A stretch of 6,816 nucleotides of DNA from a virus: the UHGV virus genome UHGV-0373539, one strand, 5' to 3'. The notes below the pieces were generated by a model that was not told where the DNA came from, ran no database searches, and saw only the letters and a list, made by a program, of their open reading frames with translations. The position numbers were made by a program, and so were the translations under genes. Position 1 is the first letter of the stretch, and each line of letters starts with the position of its first letter. Shown here in pieces: positions 129-6,816 of the stretch.

Positions 129-1415
129 ATGAAAACTATTTTTGCTAAATTCATCGTCGCTTTATTTGCTTTTACTTATTTCTCTGCATTCGCGGAGCCT
201 GTTACTTTAAACAATTCCCCTGTGCGCTCATTCGTTCAATGGTATTCATCCAAAACAGGCAAATCAGTTATTGTTAACCCTGATGTTAAGGGGAATATCA
301 CCGTATTTAATGCTGATGTTAACAACGCAAATATTGATGACTTTTTTAAGTCTGTCCTTAATGCTAACGGCCTTGTAGTTGTCGCTGGCAATCCTGCCGT
401 TGTTTCGACACCTTCAACTAAGCTCGCGTCGCAGCCGTCAAATGAAGAAACCTATGATGATGAAAGTGACGGCGTAGCGTATGAGGCAGTACCGCAGTCG
501 GCTGCGCCTGCTGTACCTGCCGATCTCACGGTACGTAATTTCAAGCTGACGCGCGTTCGTTCTTCTGACGTTCTGCCGCTGGCTAAGATTTTCGTTGATT
601 CAAATGGCGGCGGTAATGTCGTCGATTACCCAGGCAATAACAGTCTTGTTGTTTCCGGCTCAGCTCAGGTTATGCCTGCTTTATCCGATTTCATTACGTC
701 AATTGACGTTGCCCGCGAACAGGTTCTGATTCAGTCCCTGATGTTTGAAACCAGTGTTTCTAACGGCGTGGATCTTTCTTTTGCCGCTGGCTCAGCTTCT
801 GGCGGTAAAGTTGCAGGCGGCTTTAATACTTCAGCTCTCGGCACTGCTCTTTCTACTGCTGGCGGTAGCTTCGGTATCTTTAACGGTAATGTTCTGGCGT
901 TATCTCTCCAGGCTGTTCAGAGTGATTCTAACTCTAAGGTTATCTCTACCCCTCGCATCCTCACGCAGTCCGGCCAGAGTGGTTATATTTCAGTTGGCCA
1001 GAATGTTCCCTTTGTGACAGGTAAAGTCACTGGCGAGGCTGCAAGCGTTAATAATCCTTTCCAGACCATCGAGCGCCGCGACGTAGGCGTATCACTCAAG
1101 GTAACGCCGGTTGTTATGGGAAATGGTCAGTTAGTTCTGACCATCGATACTAAAGCCGACTCTCTCAGCAATCAGGCGACGGCCTCTGACATCATTACCA
1201 ATCAGCGCCAGATACAGACCACCGTTCAGATTAAAGACGGTCAGACCCTGCTTTTAGGCGGCCTCATTAGCTCTAACCAGTTCGACAACGATCGGTCTGT
1301 GCCTTTCATGTCGAAGATTCCTTTAATCGGCTGGCTTTTCCGCAGCCATTCAGACTCGAAAGATGATCGCACTATGTTCGTTTTGCTTACTGCTCACGTT
1401 ATCAGGGCGCTTTGA
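129..1415 (+). CDS. IV: Gene IV protein, outer-membrane secretin for phage export
   Basis: 428-aa ORF with N-terminal signal peptide (MKTIFAKFIVALFAFTYFSAFA). Long stretches match the M13 pIV pattern as recalled (NNSP.R.FV.WYS...SVIV.PDVKG; GGSFGIFNG; PRILT.SGQ.G.ISVGQNVPF.TG.VTGE.A.VNNPFQTIER; GQTLLLGGL; SKIPLIG.LF.S.SDS). SD GAAGG at 118-122. Confidence 0.95.
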   Translation: MKTIFAKFIVALFAFTYFSAFAEPVTLNNSPVRSFVQWYSSKTGKSVIVNPDVKGNITVFNADVNNANIDDFFKSVLNANGLVVVAGNPAVVSTPSTKLASQPSNEETYDDESDGVAYEAVPQSAAPAVPADLTVRNFKLTRVRSSDVLPLAKIFVDSNGGGNVVDYPGNNSLVVSGSAQVMPALSDFITSIDVAREQVLIQSLMFETSVSNGVDLSFAAGSASGGKVAGGFNTSALGTALSTAGGSFGIFNGNVLALSLQAVQSDSNSKVISTPRILTQSGQSGYISVGQNVPFVTGKVTGEAASVNNPFQTIERRDVGVSLKVTPVVMGNGQLVLTIDTKADSLSNQATASDIITNQRQIQTTVQIKDGQTLLLGGLISSNQFDNDRSVPFMSKIPLIGWLFRSHSDSKDDRTMFVLLTAHVIRAL

Positions 1416-1420
1416 GGGTG

Positions 1421-1447
1421 CGGGGTAGGTGCGTCAGCCCTGCCCCG
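1421..1447 (+). other. GC-rich stem-loop immediately after gene IV stop (possible terminator or packaging-signal element)
   Basis: CGGGGTAGG (1421-1429) pairs with CCTGCCCCG (1439-1447): 9-bp stem with one G-T pair, 9-nt loop. No T-run follows, so it is not a classical intrinsic terminator. Confidence 0.35.
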
Positions 1448-1532
1448 TATCCTCACAGCGTCCCCTGACCCGTATCATTCGCCTATCGCCGTATGTGCTT
1501 CCCTGTCTTGTCCCTATGGCTACGTATTGCCT

Positions 1533-1657
1533 CCCCGTTTAAATCGTCAAGCTATAAATCGTGGGGGCCCCTCTGGGGTTCCGATTTATTGCTTTACGAC
1601 TCTCCCCCCCAATAACCTTGTATCGGGTGATGGTTCACGTAGTGGGCCATCGCCCTG
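1533..1657 (+). promoter_or_regulatory. Minus-strand (complementary-strand) replication origin, Ff-like hairpins B/C region
   Basis: Extended similarity to the f1 origin as recalled from f1-ori phagemids. It includes a 33-nt stretch GGGTGATGGTTCACGTAGTGGGCCATCGCCCTG (1625-1657) that matches f1 exactly, and upstream CCCCGT..AAATCG..GGGTTCCGATTTA.TGCTTTACG similarity. The 33-mer folds as a hairpin (1625-1633 / 1647-1655). Confidence 0.7.
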
Positions 1658-1744
1658 TTAAGCGCCTTTTTTCCTGCGATCCTCCCGCCTCTCTGCTGTC
1701 TGACGGTCGCAGACGAAAGGACGTTACAGCCATTGTTTTTCGTT

Positions 1745-1800
1745 CTGCCGGCTTCTTTTTTTTGGGGGTGTACTCTTGTTGCAAAATCGCAACGCAGCGG
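1745..1800 (+). promoter_or_regulatory. Candidate plus-strand origin core (pII nick/binding region), diverged from Ff
   Basis: TACTCTTGTTGCAAAATCGCAAC resembles f1 GACTCTTGTTCCAAACTGGAACAAC. Small hairpin GTTGC/GCAAC at 1778-1793, preceded by a T-run (TTCTTTTTTTT). The upstream Ff hairpin D inverted repeat is not recognisable, so the nick site is uncertain. Confidence 0.4.
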
Positions 1801-1934
1801 GGGTTAAATCATGCTGCACGAAAGTCTCACTTTCGGGATTTTGGTTTTTGGTTTTCTGCTGCGGAGTCAGGCGGGGCGGGGTGACGTGCAGTGTATGTAA
1901 TACTGCACGTTTGTCTCAATCTGATACCTCTCTA

Positions 1935-2132
1935 CTAAACGTCTCCTTTCTTTTTAAGCTCTTTTATCATTTTCTTTTCTGCTAATTCTGTATAGTTTTC
2001 AATGACATAGTTAAGTAAATCTGTCCATGTGACCTGTACGCCTGTACTTGCACTAATCCTGATCGCAGTATCACTCAGGTTTTTCTTTTTCTCGGTGGTG
2101 ATACTGGCTGTTGTCCTAACTGGTTTTTTCAT
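1935..2132 (-). CDS. Hypothetical small basic protein (65 aa) encoded antisense in the intergenic region; possible ribbon-helix-helix-like DNA-binding regulator
   Basis: Minus-strand ORF MKKPVRTTASITTEKKKNLSDTAIRISASTGVQVTWTDLLNYVIENYTELAEKKMIKELKKKGDV. ATG at 2132-2130 has an AAAGG SD about 8 nt upstream on the minus strand. The 87-aa form in the ORF track starts at a TTG with no SD. Lys-rich; the strand / helix / G-x-T turn / helix pattern is loosely CopG/Arc-like (inference only). Confidence 0.4.
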   Translation of the reverse strand: MKKPVRTTASITTEKKKNLSDTAIRISASTGVQVTWTDLLNYVIENYTELAEKKMIKELKKKGDV

Positions 2133-2264
2133 TTTATGCCTTTGAAAAATATAAAGTTTCAACCGAAAACAGGTTTTTAAGCGTAATCTTATTGTCAATA
2201 GATGTAAAAATTTTTGTTGCGCACGTTATTTTTCACGCTATCATGCCTGCATTGGATTTCACCT

Positions 2265-2286
2265 GTATACGTGTATACACGTATAC
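2265..2286. repeat. Perfect 22-bp palindrome GTATACGTGTATACACGTATAC; candidate operator or 5'-leader hairpin for gene II
   Basis: The sequence equals its own reverse complement (checked base by base). It sits 6 nt upstream of the AAGGG SD of gene II, in the 171-bp region between the divergent minus-strand ORF and gene II. Confidence 0.6.
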
Positions 2287-2303
2287 ATCACTAAGGGATG
2301 CGT

Positions 2304-3338
2304 ATGATTGATTGGGTTACAGCCGTCTTGCCTTGTCTGCATGTGCCTGTTGATGCTGGTCGCGTCCTCTCTGTTGCGCCGGATGGCTCTGTAGAATGGG
2401 AATCAGTAAAGTTTTCCCGCGTTACTGGCTCCTTTGAAAGCTCCATCAGTGTACGTTCGCAGGGTTCTGACGGTAATGGGAAAGCCACTCATTTATACGT
2501 TGATGGTAACCCGTCAAAGTGGTTGCAGGGTCACAATATCGTTGGAAGCGACGATCTCAACGGCCTTATGATTGCTTTTTACGCTCGTATGTTGTCACTA
2601 CTCAACATACCTCACCATCTGGAATCGTATCGCCAGGTGCTTTCTGGTCAGTACGAGTTAAAGCGCGTTGACGTTAACTACATGTTTGAGCTTCCTACGC
2701 TCATTGATGTACGGTCATGGTTACATGCTGCTGAGTTCAAGGCTAAGACTCGCCACGGGCGCCCGGCAACTGCAAAGGGCACTCTGTACTTTGGTAAAAA
2801 TTCTCGCCGTTGGTCTATTAAGGCTTACAGCAAATATGATGAAGTTAATTGCGGGAAAAAAGCTCATGGCGTTCCCGAAGAAATTAAGAAAACTGGCCTT
2901 GTTGAATGGTCTAAAAATAAATTACGTCTAGAATTAACATTACGCGCATTGCAGCTTACTGATATTAATTTAAACTTTGCTAAAAACTGGTCTACTGAAA
3001 CTGCATATACTGTTTTTAAAGAATATATGGGGCGTATCGAAATGAGCGGAAATACTTTACTTACTGATACTCAAGTTATTAATTTACCGTCTGCGCTACG
3101 TATGACTTATGTGTGCTGGAAACAGGGTATTCGTGTAACCGATATGGTTTCTCGCGCCACTTATTTTCGTCACCGCAAGGCTTTAAAAGAATTCGGTATT
3201 GATATTGCTGTTACTGTTGATCGTGTTGATAATAGCAACGTTGTTCCGTTAATCCGTGTCTTAGAGGCTAAACCTGCCTCTATTCCTTCTCAATATGATA
3301 ATTTAATATTTTCATCTAATCGTGTATCAAGTTTCTAA
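2304..3338 (+). CDS. II: Gene II protein, rolling-circle replication initiator (nickase); alternative start ATG 2298
   Basis: ORF ends TAA 3336-3338. MIDWV.. start matches M13 pII MIDML.. and has SD AAGGG at 2293-2297 with 6-nt spacing; the ATG at 2298 abuts the SD. Motifs shared with M13 pII as recalled: KWLQGHNIVGSDDL (M13 KVLQGHNVFGTTDL) and NVVPLIRV (M13 NVVPLVRF). About 344 aa versus about 410 aa in Ff. Confidence 0.88.
   Translation: MIDWVTAVLPCLHVPVDAGRVLSVAPDGSVEWESVKFSRVTGSFESSISVRSQGSDGNGKATHLYVDGNPSKWLQGHNIVGSDDLNGLMIAFYARMLSLLNIPHHLESYRQVLSGQYELKRVDVNYMFELPTLIDVRSWLHAAEFKAKTRHGRPATAKGTLYFGKNSRRWSIKAYSKYDEVNCGKKAHGVPEEIKKTGLVEWSKNKLRLELTLRALQLTDINLNFAKNWSTETAYTVFKEYMGRIEMSGNTLLTDTQVINLPSALRMTYVCWKQGIRVTDMVSRATYFRHRKALKEFGIDIAVTVDRVDNSNVVPLIRVLEAKPASIPSQYDNLIFSSNRVSSF
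3027..3338 (+). CDS. X: Candidate gene X (in-frame internal restart within gene II, C-terminal ~100 aa); start uncertain
   Basis: By analogy with Ff, where pX is the C-terminal ~111 aa of pII. In-frame ATGs at 3027, 3042, 3102 and 3144; none has a strong SD. 3027 was chosen because it gives a size closest to Ff pX. Confidence 0.3.
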   Translation: MGRIEMSGNTLLTDTQVINLPSALRMTYVCWKQGIRVTDMVSRATYFRHRKALKEFGIDIAVTVDRVDNSNVVPLIRVLEAKPASIPSQYDNLIFSSNRVSSF

Positions 3339-3348
3339 GGGGTTTTAA

Positions 3349-3660
3349 ATGCACTCAGGTATTCTTATTCGTGGTCGTATTCTCGGTTCTCGCACTGCAA
3401 ACCGTGATAATAATTCGCCTCAACATATTTTAGGCGTTGGCATTCAGAAAGCTGACGGTTTTGGCGGTACGACTCAGGATGTTGAGCAGGTTAAAATCCC
3501 TGACCAGCTTGTGCAAAGCGGCGTTGTTAATCAGATTAACTCGCTTATTGGCAAACTTTGCGAAGTTCCGATTAATGTTCGTTCTTGGTCTATGAACGGC
3601 AAAAACGGCACTTCTTACACTCTGTCTTTTGATTCCGGTATTCAGGAGATTAAAAGCTGA
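3349..3660 (+). CDS. ORF in the gene V position (103 aa); putative ssDNA-binding protein by position only
   Basis: Only ORF in any frame between gene II and gene VII. Good SD AAGGGG at 3337-3342, 6 nt before the ATG. Protein MHSGILIRGRILGSRTANRDNNSPQHILGVGIQKADGFGGTTQDVEQVKIPDQLVQSGVVNQINSLIGKLCEVPINVRSWSMNGKNGTSYTLSFDSGIQEIKS. No similarity I can see to M13 gVp as recalled; at most a weak C-terminal resemblance to Pf3 gVp (VP.INV..NG...L.FD). Confidence 0.65.
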   Translation: MHSGILIRGRILGSRTANRDNNSPQHILGVGIQKADGFGGTTQDVEQVKIPDQLVQSGVVNQINSLIGKLCEVPINVRSWSMNGKNGTSYTLSFDSGIQEIKS

Positions 3661-3663
3661 TTT

Positions 3664-3753
3664 ATGTCAGATGAACTAATTCACGTAGTAATAGCTCTCG
3701 GCCTCGTTATTTCCTTCGGTTTGGGTGCTATTACTGCTGGGGTACACCGATGA
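3664..3753 (+). CDS. VII: Gene VII minor coat protein (29 aa)
   Basis: MSDELIHVVIALGLVISFGLGAITAGVHR*. Small hydrophobic protein in the expected position; C-terminus resembles M13 pVII (..LGIIAGGQR). Stop TGA overlaps the next ATG. Confidence 0.75.
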   Translation: MSDELIHVVIALGLVISFGLGAITAGVHR

Positions 3754-4188: not shown

Positions 4189-5493
4189 GTGAAAAGAAAA
4201 ATAATAGCCATATCTTTATTTTTATATATCCCTTTGTCTAATGCTGATAATTGGGAGTCTATTACTAAAAGTTATTATACTGGCTTCGCTATGTCTAATA
4301 CTGTTGAATCAAAAGATCAGGATGGTAAAACAGTTCGTAAAGAGGTTATAACTCCGGCTGATTTAACTACCGCTTGCAATGATGCTAAAGCCTCTGCGCA
4401 AGATGTATTTAATAGTATTAAGCTAACATATTCTGGTATTTGGCCTGATTCTCAGTTTCGCCTTGTAACTGGTGATACCTGTGATTACAACGGCTCGCCT
4501 GGTGAAAAAACTGAAAGCTGGTCTATTCGCGCTCAGGTTGAAGGTGATATTCAGCGTACCGTTCCCGATGAAAAACCCGCAGAACAGACACCAGAAGAAA
4601 TCTGTGAGGCAAAACCTCCAATTGATAACACTTTTAATAATGTCTCTCGCGGTGAAGATGGCAATTATTATATTAACTATAATGGCTGCGAATATTCCGC
4701 TACTGGTGTAACTGTCTGTCAATCTGATGGAACTGTCTGTTCCTCCTCTGCTTGGAAGCCAACTGGTTACGTCCCCGAATCTGGAGAATCTCAATCATCT
4801 CCTGTTAACGGTGGTGGCTCTGGTGAAACTGGCGGCGAAACTGGCGGCGGTGAAACTGGCGGCGAAACAGGTGGCGGTTCTTCTGGCGGTGATTCCGGTG
4901 GATCTACTGGCGGTGGTTCTACTGGCGGCGGTTCCTCCGGTGGTTCCTCTGGCGGTTCTGGTAATTCTCTCACCAAAGAGGATGTAACCGCAGCTATTCA
5001 TGATGCCTCCCCTTCTATTGCTGATGCTGTAAAGGATTCTCTGACAGAAGAAAATGACCAGTACGACAATCAGAATCAAGCCGATGAACAATCCGCTAAA
5101 GCGTCTGCATCTGTCTCTAATGCTCTCTCAGATGGTATGCGCGGCGTTGGTAATTTCGTTGACGATCTTGGCGGTGAATCTTCTCAGTACGGTACTGGTA
5201 ATTCAGAAATGGATCTCTCTGTCAGCATGGCTAAAGGTCAACTTGGTATTGATCGCGAAGGTCATGGTTCTGCTTGGGAAGCCTTTTTAAGCGATGGTGC
5301 TTTACGTCCCTCCATTCCTACTGGTCATGGCTGTACTGATTTTGTCATGTTTCAGGGTTCTGTTTATCAGCTTGATATTGGCTGCGATAAATTAGGCGAT
5401 ATTAAGTCTGTATTATCTTGGGTTATGTATTGCCTTACCTTCTGGTATGTATTCCAGTCTGCTACTTCATTACTTCGTAAAGGTGAACAATAA
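4189..5493 (+). CDS. III: Gene III adsorption protein (pIII), GTG start
   Basis: 434-aa ORF starting at GTG (Ff gene III also starts with GTG). Signal peptide [19 protein letters not shown]. Internal segment [16 protein letters not shown]...[24 protein letters not shown] resembles the Ff N1 (TolA-binding) domain as recalled (ESCLAKPHTENSFTNV...YANYEGCLWNATGVVVCTGDETQC). Gly-rich linker follows; C-terminal ..[26 protein letters not shown].. resembles the Ff pIII C-terminal domain. Confidence 0.93.
4811..4962 (+). repeat. Glycine-rich linker of pIII encoded by imperfect tandem repeats (GGTGAAACTGGCGGC units, then GGT/GGC-TCT/TCC units)
   Basis: Protein [51 protein letters not shown]. Repeated GAAACTGGCGGC units at 4825-4860 are visible in the DNA. 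Confidence 0.85.
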
Positions 5494-5843
5494 TGCCAGC
5501 TTTATTAGGTATTCCGGCTTTAATTCGTTTCATAATGGGGCTTGTGCCTCTTGCTATTGGTTATTTTGCTAAGTTCTTAGGCAAAATTATTACCCGTAAT
5601 GGCTTGATGGCTGCTGCCTTAATTGGTGCGATCCTTTCATTTGTCACCTTAGCAATTCAGCTTTTAGGCGATGCTTTATCTTCTGCAATGGGCGGAATGC
5701 CTGCTGATTTTGGCAATTTAATGTCCTCTGTATTACCTGATGGCACAACAACTTGTATTACAGTAATTATGACTACAAGAATAGCGGTCTTTGTTTTCGA
5801 TATTAAAGATCGCTTACTCGGCATTGCCAATAAGGTAATTTGA
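5493..5843 (+). CDS. VI: Gene VI minor coat protein
   Basis: 116-aa hydrophobic protein [13 protein letters not shown].. resembling M13 pVI (MPVLLGIPLLLRF..., ..FIFDVK..) as recalled. ATG overlaps the gene III stop (TAATG). SD AAAGGTGA upstream. Confidence 0.92.
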
Positions 5844-5844
5844 T

Positions 5845-6816
5845 ATGGCTGTTTATGTTGTTACCGGAAAATTAGGCGCAGGCAAGACGCTTGTAGCTGT
5901 ATCGCGTATACAAAGGACTTTAGCTAAAGGTGGTATTGTTGCCACCAATCTAAATTTAAAGCTTCATCATTTCCCGCAGGTAGGCAGATATGCAAAACAA
6001 TGTCGTGTTATGCGCATTGCAGACAAGCCCACTTTAGAGGATTTAGAGGCCATTGGTCGCGGCAATCTTTCTTATGATGAATCAAAAAACGGCCTTATTG
6101 TTTTAGATGAGTGTGGTACGTGGTTTAATTCCCGTAACTGGAGTGATAAAAGTCGCCAGCCTGTTATAGACTGGTTTTTACATGCCCGTAAATTAGGCTG
6201 GGATGTAATTTTTATTATTCAGGATATTTCCCTGATGGATAAGCAGGCACGCGAGGCTTTAGCCGAGCATGTTGTTTATTGCCGTCGATTAGATAAATTA
6301 AATATACCTATCATTGGTGGTTTAATATCGGTTCTTTCAGGTGGTAGATTGCCATTACCAAAAATTCACTTTGGTATTGTTAAATATGGTGATAATCCTC
6401 AGTCATTAACTGTAGATAAATGGATTTATACTGGTACAGATTTATATGCTGCTTACGATACTAAGCAGATATTTACCAGTGACCGTGAATTAAGCCCGCC
6501 ATTCTGCCCGCTTTCGCCTTATTACACTCATGGCATATTTGCCGTTAAAAGGGATGCTAAATATTATATGCGTATGACAAAAATCTATTTTAAGAAGATG
6601 AATCGTGTTTGGTTAATGGCTTCCTTTCTTGCTCTTGGTGCTGGCGTAGGGTTTTTTTATAAATCTCGCCAGATAAATGAGCAACTAGCAAATATGCCTG
6701 TAGCGTCTGCTCAGGCTAATACCACTAAAACAGATCACACCCTTGATGAATTGCCACGATTATCGATCAACTCATTTGCACAAATGGGTTATGATGTGAA
6801 TGTAAATTTCAAAGAT
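5845..6816 (+). CDS. I: Gene I assembly ATPase (pI), 5' portion; ORF runs off the window end and continues at 1-126
   Basis: ATG at 5845, 1 nt after the gene VI stop, with AAGG SD. N-terminus MAVYVVTGKLGAGKTLVAVSRIQ carries a Walker A motif (GKLGAGKT) and closely matches M13 pI (MAVYFVTGKLGSGKTLVSVGKIQ). Open to the last base of the window. Confidence 0.93.
   Translation, partial: MAVYVVTGKLGAGKTLVAVSRIQRTLAKGGIVATNLNLKLHHFPQVGRYAKQCRVMRIADKPTLEDLEAIGRGNLSYDESKNGLIVLDECGTWFNSRNWSDKSRQPVIDWFLHARKLGWDVIFIIQDISLMDKQAREALAEHVVYCRRLDKLNIPIIGGLISVLSGGRLPLPKIHFGIVKYGDNPQSLTVDKWIYTGTDLYAAYDTKQIFTSDRELSPPFCPLSPYYTHGIFAVKRDAKYYMRMTKIYFKKMNRVWLMASFLALGAGVGFFYKSRQINEQLANMPVASAQANTTKTDHTLDELPRLSINSFAQMGYDVNVNFKD
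6568..6816 (+). CDS. XI: Candidate gene XI (in-frame internal start within gene I), partial
   Basis: In-frame ATGs at 6568 and 6574 giving MRMTKIYFKKMNRVW.. align with the M13 pXI start (MKLTKIYLKK..) as recalled. AAGGG about 14 nt upstream. Followed by a hydrophobic membrane segment. Confidence 0.45.
   Translation, partial: MRMTKIYFKKMNRVWLMASFLALGAGVGFFYKSRQINEQLANMPVASAQANTTKTDHTLDELPRLSINSFAQMGYDVNVNFKD

Follow-up and report, generated by a model that had tools for sequence, protein, structure and literature searches.

The intergenic region of the genome studied here is very probably a mosaic of three parts, namely an IKe-like backbone with an intact minus-strand origin, a decayed plus origin of IKe type, and a foreign replication module with a plus origin of its own. 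A sequence-only reading of positions 1533-1800 had likewise described the origin region as mosaic, and in this respect it was right, the minus origin being of backbone type and the replication module foreign. The cause of the change in the plus origin appears from the comparisons below to be replacement of the module and not co-divergence of origin and initiator.

The window (i.e., the whole stretch of 6,816 nt that was analysed) is a complete, circularly permuted genome of an I2-2-like filamentous phage with the gene order IV, intergenic region, II/X, V, VII, IX, VIII, III, VI, I. It exhibits 95.4% nucleotide identity to I2-2 (Lineavirus I22, X14336 / NC_001332) across 99% of its length. I2-2 possesses the same gene order and the same mosaic of IKe backbone and foreign replication module, and its pII is 98.8% identical to that of the window; gene III is the most divergent gene between the two. 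Both the remnant origin and the core at 1884-1927, described below, are present in the I2-2 record too. Near-identical genomes are found in PLSDB (Klebsiella pneumoniae 'plasmid p4', NZ_CP132687, 6814 nt, 95.1%) and in IMG/VR (UViG_3300007507_000033, hereafter L015). Matching to IKe (X02139) reaches about 82% identity and is confined to the structural genes, which in IKe and the Erwinia PEar phages are 72-84% identical (nucleotides) to those of the window; packaging signal, minus origin, and the spacer block 1700-1724 are also common to these phages and the window. With Ff phages, a single stretch of 113-116 nt in the window matches. Concerning the packaging hairpin, the fold has -25.8 kcal/mol (z = -6.96), and the IKe homology around it extends to 1445. 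The features are listed in Table 1.

Table 1. Features in and around the intergenic region of the window
Feature	Position	Strand	Basis or remark
Packaging (morphogenetic) signal hairpin, IKe/I2-2 type	1402-1468	+	maps to I2-2 'morphogenetic signal' 2260-2330
Minus-strand origin, hairpin B	1544-1599	+	inverted repeat; fold as in f1
Hairpin C stem-loop (1625-1655) plus two bases = 33-mer	1625-1657	+	exact f1 match
T-rich unpaired stretch 3' of hairpin C	1658-1680	+	presumed primer-start template, by position only
IKe-collinear segment between both origins (TGACGGTCGCAGACGAAAGGACGT)	1700-1724	+	end of blastn homology to IKe
T8G5 run where IKe has its nick loop	1756-1768	+	IKe GTTTAATAG, window TTTTGGGGG
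Putative fossil 3' half of IKe-type plus origin: GTGTACTC, TTGT, palindrome	1768-1794	+	IKe match
Junction of IKe-like backbone and swapped replication module	1797-1812		three comparisons
7-bp hairpin with T-rich tail, terminator-like	1819-1835	+	kept only among close module relatives
Predicted nick-site hairpin ACGTGCAGT / GTATGTAAT / ACTGCACGT	1884-1910	+	perfect 9-bp inverted repeat
TTGT and imperfect palindrome GTCTC (1913-1917)-AATCT-GATAC (1923-1927), predicted pII binding site	1911-1927	+
65-aa reverse ORF of the swapped module, possible regulator	1935-2135	-	phrog_2503, E = 3e-16
Gene II (pII, 344 aa; gene X nested), putative cognate initiator of 1884-1927	2304-3338	+	Pfam
Gene V of the swapped module	3349-3660	+	PF17426 Putative_G5P; 12-17% identical to IKe/f1 pV

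The minus-strand origin of the backbone

The 33-mer at 1625-1657 (GGGTGATGGTTCACGTAGTGGGCCATCGCCCTG) had been claimed to be identical to f1, and it does match f1 (V00606) exactly at 5705-5737, where it constitutes hairpin C, the second hairpin of the Ff minus origin. It is the longest exact match between the window and f1 genomes and lies beyond chance expectation for two genomes of about 6.5 kb. The same 33-mer is found unaltered in L015 and L147 (both I2-2-like) and in Erwinia phage PEar1, whereas one base is different in IKe. Around it, 1545-1660 (116 nt) is 84.6% identical to the homologous f1 range 5625-5740, and identity to IKe 6333-6438 is 81-83%; no f1 alignment was obtained for the rest of the intergenic region outside 1545-1660. 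The genes common to the window and f1, in contrast, exhibit only 46-61% nucleotide identity and, in the six genes read in frame, 16-48% amino acid identity, such that the proteins are substantially diverged from Ff, as had been stated, and the region is not uniformly as diverged as the genes.

Hairpin C possesses 14 bp and a 3-nt loop in the window and in f1 alike, and hairpins B and C together reproduce the two-hairpin fold of f1 (z ~ -3.9 in both phages). The region thus consists of two adjacent imperfect plus-strand hairpins situated between the packaging signal and the plus origin, with homology to f1 and IKe, as is characteristic of the Ff/IKe-type minus origin; in the IKe record, the homologous stem-loops (including 6410-6438) are annotated as minus-strand origin. 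Comparing the window, L015, PEar1, IKe, and f1, compensatory changes are found in three pairs of hairpin B, whereas all 14 pairs of hairpin C are invariant. Hairpin C therefore appears to be under very strong constraint on its sequence and not merely on its structure, which would fit recognition by a host protein. A Rfam scan of 1380-2320 at permissive E-values returned only two chance-level matches (a microRNA and a snoRNA). A terminator-like match at 1564-1582 is merely the tip of hairpin B, and the counts of promoter and terminator sites are at shuffle level.

In Ff phages, according to Higashitani and Horiuchi, hairpins B and C are said to be the recognition site of RNA polymerase, and the primer is reportedly made from the single-stranded stretch 3' of C. 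The strong selection previously proposed on a 'primer-RNA hairpin' is borne out as far as the constraint is concerned (hairpin C is invariant but for the one change in IKe); the primer-RNA label is loose. Downstream of hairpin C, the unpaired stretch has its aligned counterpart in f1 5738-5760, yet differs from it and is not conserved in sequence. Minus-strand synthesis of filamentous phages is primed by the sigma-70 RNA polymerase holoenzyme, which recognises the origin on SSB-coated single strands and makes a short primer (PMC3411601, citing Higashitani 1996/1997 and Horiuchi 1997). By analogy, we infer that, once the single strand has entered the cell, the host sigma-70 RNA polymerase would recognise hairpins B and C (1544-1655) of the backbone minus origin on it and would there lay the primer for complementary-strand synthesis. 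Hairpin C may be frozen at the sequence level because the host enzyme that reads it serves all these coliphages alike, and this would explain the 33-nt identity to f1.

The same identity might also have arisen by recent horizontal transfer of a minus-origin cassette from Ff, without long-term purifying selection. Filamentous phages do recombine in modules, as the window itself shows, and the minus origin is far closer to f1 than anything else in the genome; a recent transfer should, however, have left a near-identical block, whereas the 84.6% identity over 116 nt comes with differences scattered through hairpin B and the spacer. Moreover, IKe, PEar1, and L015, all of the IKe lineage, have the same hairpin C within flanks of their own lineage, and the compensatory substitutions in hairpin B imply long divergence under structural constraint. 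We regard such a transfer as very unlikely and take long-standing constraint on hairpin C to be the origin of the identity.

The published I2-2 record lacks 77 nt corresponding to window 1570-1646, such that hairpin B is without its 3' half there, hairpin C without its 5' arm, and the spacer is absent altogether; for this reason the 33-mer is missing from the record. This indel makes up nearly all of the 72-nt length difference between the window and I2-2. The minus origin is intact in the window, L015, and L147, and the gap in I2-2 may be a real deletion or an artefact of cloning or sequencing; the I2-2 record also differs from the window by indels of one base, in the nick hairpin as well as the reverse ORF. 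If the deletion were real, the minus origin would be non-essential in this lineage. In either case, the gap explains why the minus origin of I2-2 went unrecognised as backbone-type: in the abstract of Stassen et al. 1992, both I2-2 origins were reportedly placed in the non-homologous module, whereas the minus origin of the window is clearly of the backbone type.

The module boundary and the remnant of an IKe-type plus origin

Similarity to IKe stops at 1794-1796 and resumes at 3677. Homology to L004 (NZ_CP098188, pZ0117EC0117-1), an E. coli 'plasmid' which is the RF of a filamentous phage with structural genes different from those of the window, begins at 1813-1815 and runs to 3642 with 85.6% identity, and nothing is shared leftward. 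L147 agrees with the window at about 99% as far as about 1805, and from about 1806 on the identity drops to about 80-85%. These three independent comparisons place the recombination boundary at 1797-1812. The swapped module (about 1813-3660) comprises its own plus origin, the 65-aa reverse ORF, gene II/X, and gene V. The terminator-like hairpin at its left end is conserved in L004 and L015 and not in distant relatives; the protein of the reverse ORF is conserved in L015, L004, L016, and L147 and broken in the I2-2 record.

Concerning gene II, the window protein matches Pfam Phage_CRI PF05144 (1e-77, 261 bits) and G2P_X_C PF05155 (77 bits), above the gathering score. Its Tyr175 aligns with Tyr197 of f1, the catalytic tyrosine of f1 pII (PMC5405960), with Tyr198 of IKe, and with Tyr175 and Tyr170 of the related loci L005 and L007. 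The pII of Ff belongs to the same Pfam family, with the catalytic tyrosine aligned, but that of the window is 66 aa shorter and only about 19-20% identical to the pII of f1 and IKe; gene V of Ff belongs to a Pfam family other than that of the window. By sequence, the window pII can be placed as a Phage_CRI protein of the Ypf/CUS/UP-phi/pTAUp-like lineage. E. coli prophages of the Ypf-phi/CUS-phi/UP-phi type and the pZ0117EC0117-1 phage resemble the window in the lineage of their pII and pV and in the origin core, and they too have a gene in reverse orientation between the origin and gene II. They differ from it in their structural modules, many of them integrate at dif, and leftward of the module an Ff-type minus origin is lacking. 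This group is reported to share its genes II and V with Ypf-phi in a modular manner (PMC7307601).

The idea that the plus origin had co-diverged with a shortened gene II protein does not agree with these relationships. A pII of 344 aa is normal for its own clade, in which about 345 aa are usual (350 aa in L005, and similar in the plasmid Reps). While pIV, pVIII, pIII, and pVI, read in frame, are 68-91% identical to IKe, pII is only about 19% identical; it arrived with its own origin in the swapped module 1813-3660, which the unrelated phage L004 shares at 85.6%.

To the left of the boundary, the window still follows IKe. Within the segment 1700-1724, positions 1711-1724 are a collinear 14-nt exact match to IKe 6498-6511, and further on 1772-1783 (ACTCTTGTTGCA) is a 12-nt exact match to IKe 6577-6588, which lies within the annotated viral-strand origin of IKe (matching part, 6577-6600). 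The palindrome GTTGC (1778-1782)/GCAAC (1789-1793) corresponds to the hairpin-E/pII-binding repeat, and these repeats stand downstream of the nick position (window GTGTACTCTTGTTGCAAAATCGCAACG, IKe GTGGACTCTTGTTGCATTTTGCAACG). Aligned over the core origin, IKe reads GAGTCCAC-TATGTTTAATA-GTGGACTC-TTGT-TGCATTTTGCA, and the window, in which the 5' arm is absent, reads TTCTTTTTTTTGGGG-GTGTACTC-TTGT-TGCAAAATCGCA. The nick loop is destroyed, TTTAATAG having become TTTGGGGG, with GGGG in the window where IKe reads AATA. Correspondingly, the Ff/IKe nick TTCTTT^AATAGTGG in the loop of hairpin D with its 5' arm GAGTCCAC was not found at 1748-1796. The sequence TTTAATAGTGGACTC has no match in the intergenic region at up to three mismatches; the only match at this threshold lies on the minus strand within gene III and is at chance level.

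IKe possesses an intact nick hairpin (GAGTCCAC...TTTAATAGTGGACTC) together with an Ff-type pII and pV, whereas the window has neither: a cognate Ff/IKe-type pII for the element at 1748-1796 is not encoded, as the low identity of the window pII indicates. The fold of the region is not significant (z = 0.34). The segment is present in L147 and I2-2, and the sister phage L015 is devoid of it entirely (roughly 1752-1806), which marks the element as dispensable and thus as a fossil. Positions 1756-1794 accordingly look like a decayed, non-functional remnant of the displaced IKe-type plus origin and not like a working origin. The hairpin-E-like element pointed out earlier is therefore real (1768-1794), but it is closer to IKe than to Ff, and CTCTTGTT as a working origin does not hold, since it is absent from L015. 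The plus origin of PEar1 exhibits no match to the IKe nick pattern within five substitutions, and so PEar phages were used for the minus origin only.

A chimera by strand exchange exactly at a nick site was also considered. It was rejected because the window has retained the post-nick half of the IKe origin, followed by a complete foreign one; the junction is situated about 17 nt beyond the IKe hairpin E, at neither of the nicks.

The candidate plus origin of the incoming module

A nick-site hairpin had been described as unrecognisable, and this is true within 1533-1800; about 110 nt beyond that interval, a perfect 9-bp hairpin is found at 1884-1910, the loop of which ends in GTAATA and the 3' arm of which starts at C. 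Directly 3' of it follow TTNGTCTC and a short palindrome with one mismatch in its right arm (GATAC for GAGAC). Aligned on TAATA, the spacing equals that of f1 (GAGTCCAC-GTTCTTTAATA-GTGGACTC, TTGT, TCCAAACTGGA). The layout of the Ff core origin (domain A) is thus as in the window, with stem, loop ending in TAATA, stem, TTGT, and palindrome, but the sequences of stem and palindrome are unrelated in the two. There is no room for an enhancer like domain B of Ff because the reverse ORF begins 8 nt past the core. The origin at 1884 and gene II at 2304 are both on the plus strand.

The stretch 1884-1927 is 100% conserved in L004, L015, and L016, its hairpin half also in L147, and conservation is still 86-92% in prophages and MAG loci with a pII of no more than 42-47% identity. 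The pattern GTAATACTGCACNTTNGTCTC occurs once in the window against 0.01 expected by chance, and scans of viral contigs and metagenomes returned it in 23 and 105 stretches, respectively. These scans demanded exact GTAATAC...GTCTC, such that the conservation of these bases is partly built into the sample of 134 sites, 120 of them with the hairpin; about 10 unique matches without hairpin lie in GC-rich coding sequence and were set aside as chance. A pII homologue (identity 30-100%, in 38 cases below 50%) was detectable at 97 sites, and at every one of these it lies on the strand of the motif; at 28 other hairpin-bearing sites, mostly on short contigs, no pII was detected in the locus. Among 91 unique hairpin-bearing sequences, the free stem position covaries (C-G in 37, A-T in 22, T-A in 22, G-C in 3), and 73 possess GTCTC-N-GAGAC or a one-mismatch variant of it. 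In L147, both arms of the palindrome are altered together (GTGCC/GTCAC), as expected for a symmetric protein-binding site, and joint changes of the arms are also found in Xanthomonas and Acinetobacter replicons.

The same arrangement exists in plasmids of 1.8-2.0 kb with a Rep of the II/X family, in which the loop GT(A/G)ATAC, TTTGT, and the palindrome are kept while stems and arms are wholly different and still complementary. The small plasmids pTAUp (Psychrobacter/Moraxella TA144), pXAG2 (Xanthomonas), and pC9_10 (Acinetobacter) encode a Rep 38-40% identical to the window pII and carry the origin core on the rep strand, like the window on the strand of gene II. They differ from the window in their length of 1.8-2.7 kb, in the absence of phage structural genes, and in stems and palindrome arms, which exhibit compensatory changes. 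pTAUp is a rolling-circle plasmid (PMC11858219). Altogether, more than 100 sequences from phages, prophages, and small plasmids have kept this core. From this comparative evidence, 1884-1927 is likely the working plus origin of the window.

As for the position of the nick, pII of M13/f1 cleaves between T5780 and A5781 (PMC5405960), and the same register predicts T1898^A1899 in the window. The pII would bind the GTCTC...GATAC palindrome on supercoiled RF and would nick the plus strand in the loop of 1884-1910 at GT^AATAC, presumably through Tyr175; rolling-circle synthesis would start and end there, as with Ff pII at TTCTTT^AATAGTGG. Two tandem duplications among the related loci are compatible with this. 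In L073, the unit comprises 2419 nt with the junction ...CATCAAGT|AATACTGCAC, the natural downstream site being CATCAAGT|GGTG; in L023, it comprises 754 nt with the junction ACAGTAA|TACTGCAC, the natural site being ACAGTAA|AACGG. The left ends of both are situated in the loop, and the crossovers are confined to GT (L073) and GTAA (L023), as GT^AATAC would allow. As footprints of nicking these junctions are suggestive and not proof, for they could be assembly artefacts. The nick position is thus predicted from the f1 register and two duplication junctions, with an ambiguity of 2 nt.

In the literature searched, no paper maps the origin of I2-2, Ypf, or CUS or reports a nick-site or origin experiment for this pII clade, and a full-text search for GTAATACTGCAC returned only unrelated primer sequences. 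The plus origin of the I2-2/Ypf/CUS/pTAUp type is accordingly defined here by comparison and is not a curated family. We slightly favour the view that the 1884-1927 core represents the so far unmapped plus origin of a large II/X-family clade, comprising I2-2-like phages, the Ypf/CUS/UP-phi prophages of E. coli and Yersinia, environmental inoviruses, and Rep-only plasmids of 1.8 kb.

Two other assignments have to be weighed against this placement. According to one, the plus origin would be situated at about 1770-1800 and be a diverged Ff-type origin that kept only hairpin E, its nick site having changed past recognition together with a shortened gene II protein. In its favour, the homology of 1768-1794 to the Ff/IKe core origin is real, and this element occupies the place downstream of the minus origin at which the plus origin of Ff and IKe lies. 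Yet L015, which is I2-2-like and possesses a 97% identical pII, lacks the segment, which largely refutes the model; nor is the segment found in L004 or L016, both of which have this gene II module. It further resembles the origin of IKe, the pII of which is only 19% identical to that of the window, it adjoins no hairpin or nick sequence, and a conserved, pII-linked origin core is present elsewhere, such that this placement is extremely improbable. According to the other, 1884-1927 would have a regulatory role, for example as an operator or as the promoter or terminator of the reverse ORF, or would be a further minus-strand origin that the module brings with it. A weak sigma-70-like match on the minus strand (1919-1890), the situation of the hairpin just beyond the stop codon of the reverse ORF, and the need of L004-type phages, which have no Ff-type minus origin, for such an origin speak in its favour. 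But the promoter-like count is at chance level, and the hairpin is not followed by a T-run on the minus strand and is hence no intrinsic terminator. Moreover, Rep-only plasmids of 1.8-2.0 kb without a reverse ORF retain the element, its position relative to gene II varies between upstream and downstream, it agrees with the core plus origin of f1 in register, in the loop ending TAATA, in TTGT, and in the palindrome, and the duplication junctions within the loop fit a nick site. A regulatory or minus-origin role is therefore very improbable, and we retain 1884-1927 as the likely plus origin.

Relation to I2-2 and significance

Modular evolution of filamentous phages has a textbook example in the replication-module swap of I2-2. 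The mosaic as such is largely known already from that phage (Stassen 1992), and the additions made here are modest: an intact minus origin of backbone type, a boundary of about 16 nt, a fossil half-origin, and a definition of the incoming origin from comparison, together with a prediction of its nick. The gap in the I2-2 reference had hidden that the minus origin stayed with the backbone, whereas three intact relatives set the boundary of the exchange between both origins, within about 16 nt, with the half-erased old origin beside the new one. The known principles of a minus origin primed by RNA polymerase and a plus origin nicked by pII are left unchanged.

If the reading is true, the window preserves both the origin that came in and, about 100 nt away, the decaying scar of the IKe origin that was displaced, and the boundary at 1797-1812 would have been used repeatedly, in at least three independent exchanges of modules. 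In that case the nick would be at T1898^A1899, and the tandem duplications starting there might constitute in vivo footprints of aberrant termination by pII. The predicted nick site would apply to a widespread clade of initiators, found in prophages of pathogenic E. coli and Yersinia as well as in very small plasmids, and the definition of the origin would aid the construction of vectors, phagemids, and helper systems from IncI-specific phages.

Comparison with the published I2-2 genome

Part of the minus-strand origin, 77 nt corresponding to window 1570-1646, is missing from the published I2-2 record (X14336) at its position 2429/2430, and is present in three other I2-2-like genomes. Furthermore, single bases are inserted at six non-coding sites of the record; two of these insertions fall within the plus-origin hairpin. 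Gap and insertions may constitute errors of this old record; alternatively, the laboratory stock may have undergone a deletion. The substitutions that distinguish the window from I2-2 are mostly found in gene III (window 4200-5400), which also contains two 9-nt indels in its Gly/Ser-rich linker; outside this gene, both sequences are about 98-99% identical. The divergence of gene III may represent adaptation to a receptor or pilus.

Elements around the plus origin

Concerning the swapped replication module, the terminator-like element at its left end, together with the G-rich block behind it (see table), is kept in an I2-2-like sister phage (L015) and in a filamentous phage with other structural genes but the same module (L004, NZ_CP098188), and partly in L016, which possesses the same gene II module; no conservation is found in distant relatives of the module. 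It could act as terminator of gene IV transcripts or as an accessory site of the origin.

The 65-aa ORF, in antisense orientation, is situated between the plus origin and gene II, and its protein is kept in L015 (94%), L004 (89%), the Klebsiella replicon L147 (86%), and L016 (79%); in the published I2-2 record, the ORF is disrupted by a 1-nt indel and unannotated. Judged by eye only, the product looks like a ribbon-helix-helix regulator. In Ypf/CUS-type prophages, the same position is taken by a reverse-oriented HTH gene. The palindrome upstream of gene II, mostly kept in L004, is a candidate operator for the product of this reverse ORF or for gene V translational control.

Features of the replication module in the window, and tandem duplications in two contigs
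Feature	Sequence or family	Location	Strand	Remarks
7-bp hairpin with T-rich tail (terminator-like), then G-rich block	GGAGTCAGGCGGGGCGGGG (G-rich block)	window 1819-1880
65-aa ORF	MKKPVRTTASITTEKKK...; phrog_2503	window 1935-2135	minus
Perfect 24-nt palindrome	TGTATACGTGTATACACGTATACA	window 2264-2287		~15 nt upstream of gene II start
Tandem duplication, 2419 nt		L073 1821-6660
Tandem duplication, 754 nt		L023 (reverse complement) 985-2499

The origin core in other replicons

Both tandem duplications have their start in the GTAATAC origin loop, and their end at pseudo-sites with GT or GTAA in common; they resemble products of aberrant rolling-circle termination. The metagenome contigs L065 (1980 nt) and L135 (2398 nt), which have terminal repeats of 127 nt, represent circular replicons, 1853 and 2271 nt in length, respectively; they possess the same origin core and, in addition to this core, only a II/X-family Rep. 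Many plasmids of this Rep-only kind, 1.8-2.7 kb in length, are contained in PLSDB (L148, L149, and L150 fall into the same group), with Xanthomonas, Acinetobacter, Vibrio, Psychrobacter, Klebsiella, and Corynebacterium as hosts. For a replicon of proteobacterial type, Corynebacterium is an unusual host.

A possible second exchange at the module boundary

The 6814-nt 'plasmid p4' of Klebsiella pneumoniae (L147, NZ_CP132687) is the RF of an I2-2-like phage. It is ~99% identical to the window as far as ~1805, whereas identity drops through the replication module (compared over 1806-2556) to 93.7% in the blast piece, and locally to 80-85%. Its origin palindrome is changed as well (GTGCC-ATTTT-GTCAC). 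The drop in identity and the altered palindrome thus suggest that an exchange took place at this boundary for a second time, and that initiator specificity was shifted.
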